Part shown: positions 4,959 to 29,958 of the stretch, one piece after another
Layout: each line of letters begins with the position of its first letter
How positions within the stretch are numbered: the stretch's first letter is position 1
Source of the DNA: Escherichia coli
GTDB taxonomy: Bacteria > Pseudomonadota > Gammaproteobacteria > Enterobacterales > Enterobacteriaceae
Direction: 5' to 3' (one strand)
DNA length: 64,000 bases
NCBI RefSeq assembly: GCF_013315695.1
Contig: NZ_CP054353.1
The notes under the pieces: model-generated
Databases searched by the model: none
What the model saw: the letters and a program-made list of their open reading frames with translations, nothing else
What the model was told of the DNA's origin: nothing
Made by a program: the position numbers and the translations under genes

Positions 4959-6307
4959 GTCTGCTGCAATTCAGTGGCCTGTTTGTTGTCTGGCTGCTCT
5001 GCACGCTGTTTATTGCCACGCTGACCTGGTTTGAGTTTCGCCGTGTGCGCTTTAACTTCAATGTCTTCTTTTCATTGCTGTTTTTGCTCACCTTTTTCTT
5101 CGGCTTTCCGCTGACCAGCGTGCTGGTATTTCGCTTTGATGTTGGTGTCGCGCCGCCAGAAATCTTGTTGCAGGCGTTGCTTTCTGCAGGCTGCTTCTAC
5201 GCGGTTTACTACGTCACCTACAAAACCCGCCTACGCAAACGCGTTGCTGATGTACCGCGCCGTCCGCTGTTTACCATGAACCGCGTGGAAACCAATCTCA
5301 CGTGGGTGATCCTGATGGGCATCGCGCTGGTAAGCGTCGGCATCTTCTTCATGCACAACGGCTTTTTGCTGTTCCGGCTTAATTCTTACAGTCAGATCTT
5401 TTCCAGCGAAGTCTCCGGCGTGGCATTAAAACGCTTCTTTTACTTTTTCATCCCGGCGATGCTGGTGGTTTATTTTCTGCGCCAGGACAGTAAAGCGTGG
5501 CTGTTTTTCCTCGTCAGCACGGTCGCCTTTGGCTTGCTGACTTATATGATTGTCGGCGGCACTCGCGCCAATATCATCATCGCATTCGCTATCTTCCTGT
5601 TTATTGGCATTATTCGCGGCTGGATTTCGTTGTGGATGCTGGCGGCGGCGGGTGTGCTGGGGATTGTGGGCATGTTCTGGCTGGCGTTAAAACGCTATGG
5701 AATGAATGTGAGCGGCGATGAAGCGTTCTATACGTTTCTCTATCTCACCCGCGATACCTTTTCGCCGTGGGAGAATCTGGCATTGCTGCTGCAGAACTAC
5801 GACAACATCGACTTCCAGGGCCTGGCTCCCATTGTCCGCGATTTCTATGTCTTTATCCCTTCCTGGCTGTGGCCGGGTCGCCCGAGTATGGTACTGAACT
5901 CCGCCAACTACTTTACCTGGGAAGTGCTGAATAACCACTCCGGACTGGCGATCTCGCCTACGCTTATAGGCTCACTGGTGGTGATGGGCGGCGCGTTGTT
6001 CATCCCGCTCGGGGCGATTGTTGTTGGACTGATCATCAAATGGTTCGACTGGCTGTATGAGCTGGGCAACCGCGAGACTAATCGCTATAAGGCTGCGATA
6101 TTGCACAGTTTCTGCTTCGGGGCGATCTTCAATATGATCGTGCTGGCGCGTGAAGGGCTGGATTCGTTTGTCTCACGCGTGGTCTTTTTTATCGTGGTCT
6201 TCGGCGCATGTCTGATGATCGCAAAACTGTTGTACTGGCTTTTTGAAAGCGCCGGACTCATTCATAAACGTACAAAATCATCGCTCCGGACGCAGGTTGA
6301 AGGATAA
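4955..6307 (+). CDS. wzyE: ECA polymerase (polytopic membrane protein)
   Basis: 450 aa hydrophobic ORF, 4-bp overlap with wecF. Confidence 0.9.
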
Positions 6308-6309
6308 CA

Positions 6310-7050
6310 ATGAATAACAACACCACGGCACCGACCTATACGCTGCGTGGCTTACAGTTGATTGGTTGGCGTGATATGCAGCACGCCCTCGATTATCTGT
6401 TTGCTGACGGGCAGCTTAAGCAGGGAACGCTGGTTGCCATTAATGCCGAAAAAATGCTGACCATTGAAGATAATGCTGAGGTCAGGGAGCTAATTAACGC
6501 TGCCGAATTTAAATATGCGGATGGCATCAGCGTTGTACGTTCAGTACGTAAAAAGTACCCGCAGGCGCAGGTTTCCCGCGTTGCCGGTGCCGATCTCTGG
6601 GAAGAGCTGATGGCGCGCGCAGGCAAAGAAGGGACGCCGGTATTTCTTGTGGGCGGTAAACCTGAAGTGCTGGCGCAAACTGAAGCTAAACTGCGCAACC
6701 AGTGGAATGTGAATATCGTTGGCAGTCAGGATGGTTATTTTAAACCCGAGCAGCGTCAGGCGCTGTTTGAACGCATTCATGCCAGCGGAGCGCAAATCGT
6801 CACCGTTGCGATGGGATCGCCAAAGCAGGAGATCTTCATGCGCGACTGCCGTCTGGTGCATCCGGATGCGCTGTATATGGGCGTTGGCGGGACTTACGAT
6901 GTTTTCACCGGTCACGTAAAACGTGCACCGAAAATCTGGCAAACGCTGGGACTGGAGTGGCTCTACCGCCTGCTTTCGCAGCCGAGCCGCATTAAGCGTC
7001 AGCTTCGTTTGCTGCGTTATTTACGCTGGCACTACACCGGCAACCTCTGA
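6310..7050 (+). CDS. wecG: UDP-ManNAcA:lipid I transferase (WecB/TagA/CpsF family)
   Basis: 246 aa; last gene of the ECA cluster. Confidence 0.9.
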
Positions 7051-24877: not shown

Positions 24878-27040
24878 ATGGACGTTTCTTACCTGCTCGA
24901 CAGCCTTAATGACAAACAGCGCGAAGCGGTGGCCGCGCCACGCAGCAACCTTCTGGTGCTGGCGGGCGCGGGCAGTGGTAAGACGCGCGTACTGGTGCAT
25001 CGTATCGCCTGGCTGATGAGCGTGGAAAACTGCTCGCCATACTCGATTATGGCGGTAACGTTTACCAACAAAGCGGCGGCGGAGATGCGTCATCGTATCG
25101 GGCAGCTGATGGGCACCAGCCAGGGCGGCATGTGGGTCGGCACCTTCCACGGGCTGGCGCACCGTCTGCTGCGTGCGCACCATATGGACGCCAATCTGCC
25201 GCAGGATTTTCAGATCCTCGACAGCGAGGACCAGCTACGCCTGCTCAAACGCCTAATCAAGGCGATGAACCTCGACGAGAAGCAGTGGCCGCCGCGCCAG
25301 GCAATGTGGTACATCAACAGCCAGAAAGATGAAGGCCTGCGTCCACATCATATTCAAAGCTACGGTAATCCGGTGGAGCAGACCTGGCAGAAGGTGTATC
25401 AGGCGTATCAGGAAGCGTGTGACCGCGCGGGCCTGGTGGACTTCGCCGAGCTGCTGCTACGTGCTCACGAGTTGTGGCTTAACAAACCGCATATCCTTCA
25501 GCACTATCGCGAACGGTTTACCAATATCCTGGTGGACGAATTCCAGGATACCAACAACATTCAGTATGCGTGGATCCGCCTGCTGGCGGGCGATACCGGC
25601 AAAGTGATGATCGTTGGCGATGACGATCAGTCAATCTACGGCTGGCGCGGAGCGCAGGTGGAGAATATTCAGCGTTTCCTCAATGATTTCCCCGGTGCTG
25701 AAACTATCCGTCTGGAGCAGAACTACCGCTCTACCAGCAATATTCTGAGCGCCGCGAACGCCCTGATTGAAAACAACAACGGGCGTTTGGGTAAAAAACT
25801 GTGGACCGATGGCGCGGATGGTGAGCCTATTTCCCTCTATTGCGCTTTTAACGAACTCGATGAAGCGCGTTTTGTGGTTAACCGTATCAAAACCTGGCAG
25901 GACAACGGCGGGGCGCTTGCCGAGTGCGCCATTCTCTACCGCAGCAACGCCCAGTCGCGTGTGCTGGAAGAAGCACTGTTACAGGCAAGTATGCCGTACC
26001 GTATTTACGGCGGGATGCGCTTCTTCGAACGCCAGGAAATCAAAGACGCGCTCTCGTATCTGCGCCTGATTGCCAACCGCAACGACGACGCGGCCTTTGA
26101 GCGTGTGGTTAATACGCCAACGCGGGGTATTGGTGACCGGACGCTGGACGTGGTACGTCAGACATCGCGTGATCGCCAGTTAACACTCTGGCAGGCATGT
26201 CGTGAACTGTTGCAGGAAAAAGCCCTCGCCGGACGTGCTGCCAGTGCCTTACAGCGGTTTATGGAACTGATCGACGCCTTAGCGCAGGAAACTGCCGATA
26301 TGCCGCTGCATGTACAGACTGACCGGGTAATTAAAGACTCCGGCTTGCGCACCATGTACGAGCAGGAGAAGGGCGAAAAAGGTCAGACGCGTATCGAAAA
26401 CCTGGAGGAACTGGTGACGGCAACGCGCCAGTTCAGCTACAACGAAGAAGACGAAGATTTAATGCCGCTGCAGGCATTCCTCTCCCATGCGGCGCTGGAA
26501 GCGGGCGAGGGGCAGGCGGATACCTGGCAGGACGCGGTGCAGTTGATGACGCTACACTCGGCGAAAGGCCTGGAGTTCCCGCAGGTGTTTATCGTTGGTA
26601 TGGAAGAGGGCATGTTCCCAAGCCAGATGTCGCTGGATGAAGGCGGACGTCTGGAAGAAGAACGCCGTCTGGCCTACGTTGGCGTAACCCGCGCGATGCA
26701 GAAACTGACGCTGACCTACGCGGAAACTCGCCGTCTGTATGGCAAAGAGGTTTACCATCGCCCGTCGCGCTTTATCGGTGAGTTGCCGGAAGAGTGTGTG
26801 GAAGAGGTGCGCCTGCGCGCTACGGTAAGCCGCCCGGTCAGCCATCAACGGATGGGTACGCCGATGGTCGAGAACGACAGCGGCTACAAGCTCGGCCAGC
26901 GCGTACGCCACGCTAAGTTTGGTGAAGGCACCATCGTCAATATGGAAGGCAGCGGCGAGCATAGCCGTTTGCAGGTGGCATTCCAGGGCCAGGGTATTAA
27001 ATGGCTGGTGGCGGCTTATGCCCGACTGGAGACGGTGTAA
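24878..27040 (+). CDS. uvrD: DNA helicase II
   Basis: 720 aa from MDVSYLLDSLNDKQREAV...; Walker A GAGSGKT. Confidence 0.95.
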   Translation: MDVSYLLDSLNDKQREAVAAPRSNLLVLAGAGSGKTRVLVHRIAWLMSVENCSPYSIMAVTFTNKAAAEMRHRIGQLMGTSQGGMWVGTFHGLAHRLLRAHHMDANLPQDFQILDSEDQLRLLKRLIKAMNLDEKQWPPRQAMWYINSQKDEGLRPHHIQSYGNPVEQTWQKVYQAYQEACDRAGLVDFAELLLRAHELWLNKPHILQHYRERFTNILVDEFQDTNNIQYAWIRLLAGDTGKVMIVGDDDQSIYGWRGAQVENIQRFLNDFPGAETIRLEQNYRSTSNILSAANALIENNNGRLGKKLWTDGADGEPISLYCAFNELDEARFVVNRIKTWQDNGGALAECAILYRSNAQSRVLEEALLQASMPYRIYGGMRFFERQEIKDALSYLRLIANRNDDAAFERVVNTPTRGIGDRTLDVVRQTSRDRQLTLWQACRELLQEKALAGRAASALQRFMELIDALAQETADMPLHVQTDRVIKDSGLRTMYEQEKGEKGQTRIENLEELVTATRQFSYNEEDEDLMPLQAFLSHAALEAGEGQADTWQDAVQLMTLHSAKGLEFPQVFIVGMEEGMFPSQMSLDEGGRLEEERRLAYVGVTRAMQKLTLTYAETRRLYGKEVYHRPSRFIGELPEECVEEVRLRATVSRPVSHQRMGTPMVENDSGYKLGQRVRHAKFGEGTIVNMEGSGEHSRLQVAFQGQGIKWLVAAYARLETV

Positions 27041-27059
27041 TTTACAACTCCGTTGCAGG

Positions 27060-27080
27060 ATGCGGTGCGCCACACCGCAT
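27060..27080. repeat. REP-like palindromic hairpin between convergent uvrD and downstream gene
   Basis: ATGCGGTG-CGCCA-CACCGCAT, 8-bp stem, no T-run. Confidence 0.35.
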
Positions 27081-27094
27081 TCGGCATCAGCACC

Positions 27095-27997
27095 TTACTT
27101 AGCGCACTTCTTCACATCAATATTCCAGTCAGCACCAGACGCAACCTGATGTTTCTGCGCAAAATTATCCATATTCAGCGCCACGGAAACATTCAATAAG
27201 CTGTTCAGATACACCATCGGCTGGCCTTCCGGCACATCGCCGAAGCTTGCGACATATGGCATTTTCCCTGCGTATTTTTGCTGGGAACCTTCGGAAATGG
27301 TCACACACAACGTGTCGTTGAGTTTGATTCCTGCCTGATTCAGCAACTCGTCGCTGATATTGCTCCAGACGTTGCCGTACTGAATATCGAGAATTGGGAT
27401 ATTGCCCTTCACTTCACCTTTTGTTGCTTTTGCTTTCTGATAAGAAAGTTCGACAACTTTTGCAGGAAGCTCTGGCCCCACCTGTTCGAACGTGATCACT
27501 CCGGAAGCCAGACGCGCACCGGTGTAGGCATATACATCGCGACCATGGAAGGTATATGACTTTTCAGAACCTTTCAGGCGGTTAGCTTTTTCGTCGATTT
27601 CCCGGACGCTATCAATACCCAGAGTTTGTGCCACCAAAGTGAGCGTACCGTTATCTGGTGAAACGAAGTATTGACCGTTTTTGGTTTTCAGCACTACCGA
27701 TTTACGGTCAGTGCCTACGCCCGGATCGACCACGCTAACCAACACCGAACCTTGCGGCCAGTAACTGGCAGTCTGATACAGGCGATAAGCGCCTTCCCAG
27801 ATGTTATACGGTGGAATTTCGTGTGTTAAATCAAAGATTTTAAGATTATGGTCAACGCCGAATGCGACCCCTTTCATCGCCGAGACGGCACCATCTTTCA
27901 GGCTAAAATCAGTTTGTAAAATCAAAGCGTTATCCGCATAGGCGGATGATGATCCCAGACACGTTAATAAAAATAACGTTGCGAGCGTTTTTTTCAT
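27095..27997 (-). CDS. DUF62 family protein (SAM hydroxide adenosyltransferase / SalL-FlA halogenase-like) with N-terminal signal peptide
   Basis: 300 aa; signal-like MKKTLATLFLLTCLGSSSAYA; family motifs LQTDFSLKDGAVSAMKGV, DLTHEIPPYNI, VVDPGVGT, SPDNG, FHGRDV, GNVWSNI; AAGGG RBS. Confidence 0.7.
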   Translation of the reverse strand: MKKTLATLFLLTCLGSSSAYADNALILQTDFSLKDGAVSAMKGVAFGVDHNLKIFDLTHEIPPYNIWEGAYRLYQTASYWPQGSVLVSVVDPGVGTDRKSVVLKTKNGQYFVSPDNGTLTLVAQTLGIDSVREIDEKANRLKGSEKSYTFHGRDVYAYTGARLASGVITFEQVGPELPAKVVELSYQKAKATKGEVKGNIPILDIQYGNVWSNISDELLNQAGIKLNDTLCVTISEGSQQKYAGKMPYVASFGDVPEGQPMVYLNSLLNVSVALNMDNFAQKHQVASGADWNIDVKKCAK

Positions 27998-28079
27998 TTT
28001 TGTTTCCCTTCATTTATCTGATGATTTTCCAGCTGTGTAGCCAGTCCCAGTTTGTCTGGCCTCCTCGAGTGTACAATGC

Positions 28080-28520
28080 TTAACCTTTCCGCTCGACGGA
28101 AATCATGGTGACAAAAGGATAGCGTTGCCACGGGATTGCCCCGCCTTTCATATACATATGTGAAATTGTGCCATCAAGATAAAGCAGCTGCTCAACGTTC
28201 AGTTTCGCTTTGGCATAGCAGGCAAAATCATAAAAATTTGTCGCCTGCTGGCTCAACAAAAACACGGCGTTCCCTTGTTTATTAATCCCTACACCGTTAC
28301 GAATTTTACGCGAGGCGACGTTGGGATGAATACGCGGATTAATTACACCGTTTTCCATCAACAATGGCCCTGACTGCACCGCAAACTGAATCTCTTTACT
28401 GGTTTTAAAGGCATCCAGACGAACGATGCCGACTTTATCTCCCGCGACATAAAACACGCCGCCAGGACGAATAAAGAAATTCCCTTCACCTGAAGCGAAA
28501 TTTAACGCCACCTTCTGCTG
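28080..28520 (-). pseudogene. yigE: yigE (DUF2233) C-terminal fragment, interrupted by IS4
   Basis: 143-codon ORF whose upstream end abuts the IS4 left end; continues the reading frame of the fragment on the other side of the IS. Confidence 0.8.
28509..28520. repeat. 12-bp target-site duplication (left copy) of IS4
   Basis: CACCTTCTGCTG immediately outside IS4 left IR; identical copy at 29947-29958. Confidence 0.85.
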
Positions 28521-29946
28521 TAATGCCAGTCAGTTAAGCAACTGACTGGCTCTTTTTCGGGGCTGTGGGGTATTTCCAGGGCCTCTCCTTTACCACTCTC
28601 GGGAAGGCCCTTTCCCTTCTTGTCGGTAATTTCACAAGTTGTCCCATACTTGCAAGATCGCGCATCAGCTCCGGTATACGTCCCGGTGAAGCGCCCTGCA
28701 ATGTCATCAGCATTCTCATCACCATTCCGCATGATTCTGAGAAACTCAGTTGATTCGGCCAGTAACCTTTCAGATGTTCCGCCATTTTAATCATCTGATA
28801 TCTCACCAGATTATAAGCCAGTAAGACACCCCACAGCTCTTGCTCCACAAGCTCCGGTTTTTTACTTCTCAGCGTCAGCCTGCTCAGTTGCATCGTCTGT
28901 TTTATCTCCCTGTATCCCAGTTCGATTTCCCAGCGATGACTGTACAGATCCGCCATTTCTCCTCCGGGGAAGCGCATGGCGTCCGTCATCGACGTCAGCA
29001 GATGGCAGACTTTTCCTTTGCGCGTCACGGTCAGCAGGCGGGCTGTCACTTCATTTCCCAGTCCCGGCCACTTTTTTCGTGCCTGCGGGCTGGTTTTCAG
29101 CTTCACCAGATGATCGCCTTTACCCAGTTTTCTGATCTCTTCATATTGCGCTCCCTTTCTGAGAGGTATCATCCAGTGGCGGTGTTCTCCCGCCAGGCTC
29201 CAGGCATTTAACAGTCCCAGTGAGTAATAACCTTTATCCATTAACGTCAGAGTGTTATCGCCGGTTTGTTCTATAAGTTGCTCAGCAAGCTCATTTTCGC
29301 TGTTCTTCATCGTGCCGAAGGCTGCAGCCGTCAGCAGATGGCTGGTCAGTTCCATCTGGCAGACCATTTTGACCTGCGGGTAGAGCGCCGGGTTCCCGGC
29401 ATGTGTCTGGCGGGGGAAGGCTGCATCGTTCTCTGGTGTATCCGGTGTGCGCCAGAACACACCATCGATGGCCAGCAGGGTCAGGCCGCACCAGTGCGGA
29501 TGCGGCGTGGCGTTATGCCAGAGCTGCGCTGTTTTCGTGAACACGCGGCGGACAGCCTCACTTCCCAGGCGCTGGCGGGCCTGAATAACGGCACTGGGGG
29601 CAACGAAGGGGCGATTGCCCGGCAGCATGATGTCCAGGCGATTCACAATCTGGTGAAGAGGTTCTTTACGCTCAAGCGCCATGCCAACAATACACCAGAC
29701 CATCATTTCGAGGGGAAGACGGCGCTTGCGTAGCGTTACAGTACCTGATTCGGCAAGGCAACGAGAGATGAGTTCGGGGTCGAGGTAATCCCCCAGAGAA
29801 GTCAGTGGGTTACGCAGAGAATCGTAACGGGATACCAGATCAAGAGCCTGTCCAATGTGCATAAAAAAATCCGGAAACAAGTGAGCGTTTCCGGATTCTT
29901 ACACAGCCACTGGATCGGTCAACTGATCCTTAACTGATCGGCATTA
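28521..29946 (-). mobile_element. IS4 insertion sequence (complete, 1426 bp)
   Basis: 18-bp terminal inverted repeats TAATGCCAGTCAGTTAAG / TAATGCCGATCAGTTAAG (16/18), single transposase ORF, flanked by 12-bp direct repeat. Confidence 0.9.
28534..29862 (-). CDS. insG: IS4 transposase (DDE)
   Basis: 442 aa from [20 protein letters not shown]...; matches my recollection of IS4 transposase. Confidence 0.9.
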
Positions 29947-29958
29947 CACCTTCTGCTG
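29947..29958. repeat. 12-bp target-site duplication (right copy) of IS4
   Basis: CACCTTCTGCTG immediately outside IS4 right IR. Confidence 0.85.

Follow-up and report, generated by a model that had tools for sequence, protein, structure and literature searches.

Enzymes of the DUF62 family catalyse adenosyl-transfer chemistry at C5′ of S-adenosylmethionine (SAM). The hydrolases among them are defined by an Asp-Arg-His triad (D68-R75-H127 in PH0463), and the halogenases by the residues of a halide pocket, T80 and S158 in the fluorinase FlA and Y70 and G131 in the chlorinase SalL (PMC4859513, PMC10491745). Members of the family form homotrimers in which the active sites lie between adjoining subunits. 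The cytoplasmic hydrolases PH0463 of P. horikoshii, MJ1651 of M. jannaschii, Salinispora StDUF62 and T. maritima 2ZBU start at the domain itself, carry no signal and act on the cytoplasmic SAM pool. The role proposed for the cytoplasmic enzymes is the removal of epimerised (R,S)-SAM (bioRxiv 10.1101/2025.08.29.672840), and the physiological role of DUF62 hydrolases is disputed (PMC12120602). Here we analyse a DUF62 gene located between uvrD and yigE in a 64,000-nucleotide stretch of an Escherichia coli chromosome (contig NZ_CP054353.1 of assembly GCF_013315695.1; the whole stretch is referred to as the window), the product of which has a predicted Sec signal peptide.

The E. coli protein shares with the cytoplasmic hydrolases both Pfam domains, the fold (template modelling (TM) scores of 0.85–0.90), the Asp-Arg-His triad and the adenosine-binding motifs, and the same SN2 hydrolysis of SAM would be expected of it. 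Sequence identity to these enzymes is only 30–34%, and the protein differs from them in possessing a 21-residue Sec signal, a clade-specific pair of cysteines, a C-terminal extension ending in KKCAK, and a Tyr in place of the Phe of the IDxxFGN motif. SalL and FlA resemble it in fold and in their chemistry at C5′, but they lack the triad, have halide-pocket residues, are cytoplasmic and belong to biosynthetic clusters. HP0709, the orthologue in Helicobacter pylori, has the same length of 300 residues, the same signal architecture, the triad and the cysteine pair; unlike the E. coli gene, it occupies another genomic site, and the proteomic evidence for release concerns HP0709 alone. A functional analogy, with unrelated folds and chemistries, can be drawn to the phosphoesterases UshA and CpdB of E. 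coli and the nuclease NucT of H. pylori, exported enzymes that turn non-importable adenine compounds into importable nucleosides. The analogy to such scavenging enzymes is drawn partly with reference to PMC13328217.

The family-level annotation of this gene and the chemistry of the family are already known. A large exported DUF62 clade, its occurrence among the accessory genes of E. coli and, in H. pylori, in the form of a released protein, and the inter-phylum transfer between the two appear to be undescribed: a search of the literature on DUF62, on the hydroxide adenosyltransferase and halogenase family and on HP0709 found no mention of a signal peptide or a periplasmic location. To our knowledge, no enzyme that uses or degrades SAM has been described in the bacterial periplasm. 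The protein is very probably an exported, hydrolase-type DUF62 enzyme. The best explanation of the data overall, to which we assign a probability of roughly 0.45, is that this enzyme is exported, cleaved and splits exogenous SAM for uptake.

Fold and active site

The protein is a member of DUF62, as confirmed by both profile and fold. This agrees with the first-pass annotation, which had been made from the letters of the window and had quoted the motifs TDFSLKDGAVSAMKGV, DLTHEIPP, VVDPGVGT, PDNG, FHGRD and GNVWSN, all of which are found in the translation. The match to SAM_HAT_N (E = 1.8e-52, 177 bits) spans positions 2–145 of the 145-position model, and is followed by the C-terminal beta domain (Table 1). 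The LDIQYGN sequence of the latter (D204, N209) is the counterpart of the family motif IDxxFGN, which was defined together with the other DUF62 ligand-binding motifs in PMC4859513. Sequence matches in the PDB comprise T. maritima 2ZBU (8e-43), SalL, PH0463 and MJ1651. The AlphaFold2 (AF2) model, a monomer built on 58 homologues, has a mean predicted local distance difference test score (pLDDT) of 93.4 and adopts the two-domain fold of the solved DUF62 members, an alpha/beta/alpha N-domain joined to a beta C-domain. All 40 Foldseek matches at E ≤ 0.001 are chains of the DUF62 family, among them 2zbu (E = 2.6e-31, TM 0.89–0.90), SalL (TM about 0.89–0.90) and PH0463 (TM 0.86).

The ligand-binding motifs are present as D30 in TDF (ribose-binding Asp, D16 in FlA), P114-D-N-G117 (family motif PxNG(L)) and L203-D-I-Q-Y-G-N209 (with the Asn that is N215 in FlA). 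Across the 58 homologues, D30, D91, P114, N116, G117, G152-R153-D154 and G208 are invariant, while R98 and H151 are conserved in at least 90%. The residues D91, R98 and H151 (VVDPGVGTDR...FHGRD) align with the Asp-Arg-His triad of the hydrolases. In SalL, the three positions are occupied by Tyr, His and Tyr instead (Y72, H79 and Y130; residue numbers by our own count), and its halide-pocket residue Tyr70 aligns with V89. The active site is predicted to be of the hydrolase type. The first-pass annotation had also entertained a halogenase-like enzyme; this option is disfavoured by the triad and by the fluorinase model TIGR04507, which reaches 81.5 bits against a cut-off of 400. Two equivalog models of (R)-SAM hydrolases likewise remain below their cut-offs (NF058624, 133.4 bits versus 350; NF053629, 116.4 bits versus 470). 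Judging by their names and by the MJ1651- and PH0463-type matches, these models appear to be narrowly built on archaeal and thermophile enzymes; by these scores, the characterised enzymes and the present protein are not equivalogs, which is no argument against a hydrolase.

Selection on the gene is strongly purifying, with a ratio of non-synonymous to synonymous divergence (dN/dS) of 0.059 for the whole gene in comparison with the H. pylori orthologue, and of 0.045 at a dS of 0.95 for the mature chain. Among positions conserved in at least 90% of sequences, only P201, Y207 and L267 distinguish the exported clade from cytoplasmic relatives bearing the triad. Because the fold, the ligand-binding motifs and the triad are intact, purifying selection is strong and the clade-specific positions are so few, the adenosyl-transfer chemistry is most likely unchanged from that of the cytoplasmic relatives.

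Signal peptide and probable export

Rule-based inspection of the N-terminus supports the Sec-type signal noted in the first-pass annotation. The n-region MKK has a charge of +2, the 12-residue h-region has a mean Kyte–Doolittle hydropathy of 1.97, and the c-region places Ala at −3 and −1, giving AYA|D with DNALILQTDF as the following sequence (Table 1). A twin-arginine motif is absent from the N-terminus. The signal segment lies outside the fold: it falls outside all PDB alignments, the solved homologues aligning only from residue 21–28 onwards, and AF2 assigns a pLDDT of 54–58 to the first 20 residues compared with more than 90 elsewhere. A reading of the LLTC sequence as a lipoprotein signal was rejected, with Thr at −1 and with the Cys replaced by Gln or His in Helicobacter sequences.

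The segment is retained as a feature far beyond E. coli. The homologue scan was made with one genome per species, and 80 loci were kept. Every homologue of at least 55% identity, from about 70 species and at least ten phyla, possesses a hydrophobic N-terminal segment with a small-x-small end just before the domain, the sequence of the segment itself not being conserved. Signal-bearing members occur in Proteobacteria, Campylobacterota, Bacteroidota, Verrucomicrobiota, Synergistota and Tissierellia, and further in Fusobacteriota, Thermotogota, Planctomycetota, Ignavibacteriota and Desulfobacterota. The first-pass annotation had regarded a signal as unusual for the family; this holds in comparison with the characterised cytoplasmic members, but among the relatives of the query a signal is the rule, being present in 109 of 147. 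Comparison of the E. coli protein with HP0709 shows 13 of 21 identical residues in the signal (62%; dN/dS 0.37) and 257 of 279 in the mature part (92%; dN/dS as given above), the signal evolving about eight times faster.

C231 and C298 are the sole cysteines of the mature chain. In the AF2 model, C231 is situated in the strand formed by residues 229–236, and C298 directly follows the last strand (residues 291–297). Both are present in 29 of the 147 sequences and neither in 117, one truncated sequence having the first only, and they are never found in relatives that lack a signal. A disulfide that forms in an oxidising compartment would be expected to show such a pattern. Export is well supported by four independent lines, namely the signals of the homologues, the divergence of signal and mature part, the cysteine pair and the proteomics of HP0709 described below, and the protein probably works outside the cytoplasm, unlike its known relatives.

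Among the more distant signal-bearing DUF62 relatives, P0136, P0145, P0153, P0190, P0191, P0194 and P0196 lack the triad, which is replaced by, for example, DQT, GSY, DTL, NDA, DEY, DKA or DTY. Owing to this loss, some exported DUF62 members may have a different or a non-catalytic function. Exported DUF62 domains with long C-terminal extensions are also observed, in P0158 (672 aa), the tail of which is alpha/beta-hydrolase-like as judged from its sequence, and in open reading frames (ORFs) of 639–640 aa from metagenome-assembled genomes (MAGs) of Fervidobacterium (loci L071 and L079).

The Helicobacter pylori orthologue

HP0709 (UniProt O25413), annotated as a 'conserved hypothetical protein', is encoded between rsmH/HP0708 and homA. 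In published proteomic data for H. pylori 26695, its spectral counts rise in the supernatant depleted of outer-membrane vesicles (OMVs) (0, 1, 1, 6 and 17) and stay low in the soluble cell fraction (0, 1, 0, 1 and 0) and in membranes (2, 1, 3, 5 and 3) (PMC4773364). At 48 h, the log2 enrichment of the supernatant over the soluble cell fraction is 5.1 (Bonferroni p = 1.4e-5), and independent data from multidimensional protein identification technology (MudPIT) give counts of 3 and 9 versus 1 and 0 (log2 4.5, p = 0.010) (PMC4773364). The protein is also listed in an OMV proteome (PMC8756444) and is among the targets of serum antibodies, which differ between patient groups (PMC11394471). In a bacterial genome-wide association study (GWAS), HP0709 alleles are associated with gastric cancer risk, a single-nucleotide polymorphism (SNP) at nucleotide 145 specifying Asp in 'safe' and Asn in 'risk' strains (PMC6090961). 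The SNP maps to D49 (codon 27851–27853 of the window), which in the model follows the helix formed by residues 36–48; E. coli likewise has Asp here. The H. pylori protein appears to be released from cells, is visible to the immune system and is subject to a cancer-associated polymorphism, yet it has no assigned function; a search of the literature found no functional study of it.

Beyond Escherichia and Shigella, the top matches to the E. coli protein are from H. pylori and H. acinonychis, at the same length and with 89–90% identity. The next relatives, at 65–75% identity, belong to Aeromonas, Edwardsiella, Pasteurellaceae, Thorsellia and Neisseriales, all of them Gamma- or Betaproteobacteria. 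HP0709 itself shares about 90% of its protein sequence and 84% of its DNA sequence with the E. coli gene. The homologous DNA reaches from roughly 25 nt upstream of the ATG to roughly 9 nt past the stop codon (H. pylori gene at 6001–6903 in loci L002–L005). One Helicobacter homologue cluster contains 2,579 member sequences, and by this size the gene is widespread in H. pylori; no other Helicobacter species is represented among the 80 loci kept. A neighbour-joining tree, calculated without support values, pairs Helicobacter with Escherichia as sister groups, and Edwardsiella branches off next. The GC content of HP0709 is 42.8%, compared with 38% locally. The nesting of HP0709 in an enterobacterial clade and its identity at both protein and DNA level point to an inter-phylum transfer, the simplest history being one from an Escherichia-like enterobacterium into the lineage of H. 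pylori and H. acinonychis, a direction suggested by the sequences. With a dS of 0.92 between the E. coli and H. pylori genes, the transfer was not recent. With its DNA identity, the pair clearly illustrates how genes move between two phyla that both inhabit the human gut.

In strain Pt11468, the HP0709 copy beside a prophage (L088:1–1000) is a pseudogene with 93% nucleotide identity to intact HP0709 and 11 frame-breaking gapped positions. Two 'Helicobacter phage' records, including Pt11468_1, contain flanking chromosomal HP0709 at their ends, which fits the prophage integration hotspot reported next to homA (PMC11321410).

Proposed function and alternatives

In the proposed mechanism, the pre-protein would be exported by the Sec pathway and cut by signal peptidase I, presumably after Ala21. 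The mature product, a two-domain DUF62 enzyme of 279 residues and 30.4 kDa, would reside in the periplasm, probably stabilised by a putative Cys231–Cys298 disulfide, and would be partly released from the cell. There, Asp91-Arg98-His151 would activate water, which would attack C5′ of an adenosyl-sulfonium substrate in an SN2 reaction. The overall conversion would most likely be SAM + H2O → adenosine + L-methionine outside the cytoplasm, with SAM as the presumed physiological substrate. Exogenous SAM from lysed host or microbial cells would thus be split into adenosine and methionine for uptake. Uptake systems exist for both products, in the form of nucleoside permeases and a methionine ABC transporter.

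The first-pass annotation had called an extracytoplasmic member of the family functionally unexplained, and the literature indeed holds no established function. We know of no SAM pool in the periplasm and of no import of SAM by E. coli, so that repairing epimerised cytoplasmic SAM cannot be the task of a periplasmic enzyme, and scavenging is favoured for this reason. H. pylori, moreover, requires methionine. It is also a purine auxotroph that depends on salvage (PMC13328217, PMC13280913). HP0709 appears under the name 'salL' in a gene list from RNA sequencing of H. pylori biofilms that also includes the methionine transporter gene metI (PMC6212823), a co-listing that is weak evidence for scavenging. 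Salvage of exogenous SAM as the physiological role is a tentative proposal, to which we give somewhat less than even odds. Broader still, and possible though doubtful, is the idea of a widespread class of extracytoplasmic SAM-cleaving enzymes by which bacteria unable to import SAM would harvest it as adenosine and methionine, a capacity that H. pylori would have acquired horizontally; such a class would span Proteobacteria, Campylobacterota, Bacteroidota, Verrucomicrobiota, Synergistota, Firmicutes, Fusobacteriota, Thermotogota and Planctomycetota.

If the present enzyme is active on SAM, it would provide an unrecognised route to methionine and purines for gut and gastric bacteria. Under the broader idea of an extracytoplasmic class, HP0709 would be a nutritional colonisation factor, and the biological role of DUF62 would not be limited to repairing epimerised cytoplasmic SAM. 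Since the exported clade cannot repair the cytoplasmic cofactor pool, an alternative role of the family could be tested cleanly on it.

Several points weigh against salvage of exogenous SAM. Free extracellular SAM is scarce and chemically unstable, and a salvage enzyme is not obviously worthwhile. The characterised DUF62 hydrolases are slow, and at least one prefers the (R,S) epimer (PMC12120602); an enzymatic assay of any exported member, including HP0709, was not found in the literature. The gene is dispensable in E. coli, being absent from 58% of complete genomes (n = 5,426), and HP0709 is a frameshifted pseudogene in strain Pt11468 and therefore not essential. Analysis of gene neighbourhoods, in which ORFs were called in the 80 loci, compared all-against-all by BLASTP and clustered, reveals no recurrent neighbour, such as a nucleoside or methionine transporter, beyond genus-level synteny. 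With regard to release, HP0709 is outside the authors' list of 74 selectively released proteins, and its enrichment in the supernatant is significant only at the last time point (PMC4773364). For these two reasons, late leakage from the periplasm is as likely as active secretion.

Two arrangements restricted to particular groups were observed in the neighbourhoods. In 11 loci of Aeromonas (for example, L020:5964–6620), a signal-bearing RNase T2/RNase I-like gene (HGLWPQ) lies directly downstream of the DUF62 gene; from their sequences, both products would be periplasmic enzymes releasing nucleosides or nucleotides. In MAGs of Neisseriales and Burkholderiales (L012, L015 and L037), the DUF62 gene has glgC-glgA-like genes on one side and, on the other, a convergent gene, the N-terminus of which resembles phosphopentomutase (DeoB) of nucleoside catabolism and which we take, by eye, to be phosphopentomutase-like.

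The main rival to salvage of SAM is an enzyme that is exported and catalytically competent but has as its physiological substrate another 5′-substituted adenosine with a good leaving group, encountered outside the cell, such as a halogenated adenosine, decarboxylated SAM or a nucleoside antibiotic of the sulfonium or sulfamoyl type, and that serves detoxification or some other salvage. The scarcity of SAM outside cells would fit such a substrate, as would the open questioning of the physiological substrate of DUF62 enzymes (PMC12120602). Two of the positions that mark the exported clade are also of relevance here: Y207, where a Tyr has become fixed instead of the Phe of IDxxFGN, and Leu267, where the halogenases have their carboxylate-binding Arg. 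The loss of the triad from several of the more distant exported relatives, a sign that the exported lineage explores other functions, lends this alternative some weight. However, the residues that hold adenosine and the triad are all conserved, with no more than three conserved positions marking the clade; no biosynthetic or resistance gene cluster lies beside the gene in the 80 loci, and the present data point to no candidate substrate. We regard a substrate other than SAM as unlikely, though it is the alternative to be taken most seriously.

An exported SAM hydrolase might instead have a non-nutritional purpose, clearing extracellular or periplasmic SAM, or inhibitory (R,S)-SAM, in a protective, competitive or host-directed role. 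This would draw on the same evidence for export and chemistry as salvage does, and the GWAS alleles (PMC6090961) and antibodies (PMC11394471) of HP0709 add to it, although they speak for exposure to the host and not for a mechanism. No extracytoplasmic target sensitive to SAM is known, and the clade consists mostly of free-living soil and water bacteria (Chitinophaga, Verrucomicrobia, Aeromonas), which argues against a host-specific role; a purpose of this kind seems improbable.

A mis-called start, or an N-terminus that does not work as a signal, would make the protein a cytoplasmic (R)-SAM hydrolase of the ordinary kind, translated for example from a TTG at codon 25; among alternative starts, this one alone keeps D30. 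The TTG is conserved in E. coli and H. pylori, and a product beginning there, M-ILQTDF, would resemble the N-termini of the cytoplasmic homologues. Against it, a Shine–Dalgarno sequence precedes the ATG and none precedes codon 25, the hydrophobic extension is kept in about 70 species across phyla, the conserved cysteine pair occurs only in signal-bearing forms, and HP0709 is enriched in the supernatant while nearly absent from the soluble cell fraction. The internal start was rejected, the ATG is retained, and a cytoplasmic enzyme is very improbable. Least credible of all is an exported SAM-dependent halogenase making 5′-chloro- or 5′-fluoro-5′-deoxyadenosine: the 'adenosyl-chloride synthase / salL' annotations in H. 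pylori are database names only, and the equally close fold of SalL (TM 0.89) and the chloride-rich gastric niche are outweighed by the triad, which halogenases lack, by Val89 and His151 at the positions of Tyr70 and Tyr130 of SalL, by the low fluorinase score given above, and by the lack of halogenation in characterised triad-bearing enzymes (PMC4859513, PMC12120602).

Presence and absence in E. coli

The region is present, at a coverage of at least 80%, in 2,295 of 5,426 complete E. coli genomes (about 42%) and in every case lies between uvrD and yigE. The other genomes, K-12 derivatives among them, match at the flanks only, and the K-12-type locus has a spacer of about 100 bp containing repetitive extragenic palindromic (REP) sequence in place of the approximately 1,040 bp that include the gene. 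The first-pass annotation was accordingly right to place the gene outside the K-12 backbone. The left edge of the polymorphism lies just past the REP-like hairpin downstream of the uvrD stop, and the right edge is exactly the yigE stop codon. The K-12-type uvrD–yigE spacer (L086:842–987) consists of REP-like palindromes, of which only the first hairpin is shared with positions 27041–27094 of the window. From these sequences, the pattern suggests a REP-associated deletion or replacement at uvrD–yigE.

Alleles within E. coli have diverged to a dS of 0.14, and the gene is present in a genome of a cryptic-clade Escherichia. For both reasons, the gene is old in Escherichia and was probably lost repeatedly, as opposed to having been gained recently. 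A tblastn search of plasmids and phages brought up no close homologue on any true plasmid or phage, the matches to 'plasmids' of E. coli being chromosomes of 4.9 Mb.

Gene and locus

The features of the locus are listed in Table 1. As the first-pass annotation had described, this is a well-formed gene with a good ribosome-binding site, its ORF being preceded by the Shine–Dalgarno-like GAAGGG, and it is flanked by the stops of uvrD at 27040 and yigE at 28080. The element ATCAGATAA precedes the Shine–Dalgarno-like sequence and is common to the E. coli gene and the H. pylori locus. An identical coding sequence (CDS) is annotated in RefSeq for E. coli MSB1_4I (WP_201555557.1, 'SAM hydrolase/SAM-dependent halogenase family protein'), the chromosome of which is 100% identical to the 2.1-kb query region. 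The GC content of the gene is 47.2%, and 50.5% at third codon positions (GC3), lower than in the neighbouring genes.

Table 1 Features of the DUF62 locus in the window
Feature	Position	Strand	Details
DUF62 / SAM hydrolase-family CDS	27095..27997	minus	300 codons + TAA, ATG start; from ORF list, RefSeq CDS and Pfam
Signal peptide (residues 1–21)	27935..27997	minus	MKK / TLATLFLLTCLG / SSSAYA; predicted signal peptidase I cleavage A21-D22
SAM_HAT_N domain (residues 26–174)	27476..27922	minus	Pfam PF01887; carries D30, D91, R98 and H151
SAM_HAT_C beta domain (residues 198–291)	27125..27406	minus	Pfam PF20257, E = 3.9e-18; carries LDIQYGN
Cys231 and Cys298 codons	27104..27307	minus	Cys231 codon 27305–27307, Cys298 codon 27104–27106; candidate periplasmic disulfide
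Shine–Dalgarno-like GAAGGGA	28005..28011	minus	about 7–8 nt 5′ of the ATG; read from sequence
REP-like GC-rich hairpin	27052..27087	.	between the convergent uvrD and DUF62 stops; left part also present in K-12-type genomes

The REP-like hairpin between the convergent stops has a predicted folding energy of −20.5 kcal/mol on either strand and is probably a bidirectional transcript end. A scan for promoters and terminators gave matches at no higher frequency than shuffled sequence did, and the 82-bp spacer upstream of the DUF62 gene contains none of them. The gene yigE, which encodes a phosphodiester glycosidase family protein, lies directly upstream in the same orientation and is interrupted by a 1,426-bp IS4 element (28521–29946). 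The element contains a transposase ORF on the minus strand (28534–29880), has terminal inverted repeats TAATGCC..TCAGTTAAG, and is flanked by a 12-bp target duplication, CACCTTCTGCTG, at 28509–28520 and 29947–29958. With the insertion in a co-oriented upstream gene, any read-through from the yigE promoter into the DUF62 gene would be disrupted in this strain. On the same chromosome, the RefSeq annotation also contains a partial pseudogene of a 'DKNYY family protein' between cyaY and lptM, in the upstream part of the window (L001:574–759).

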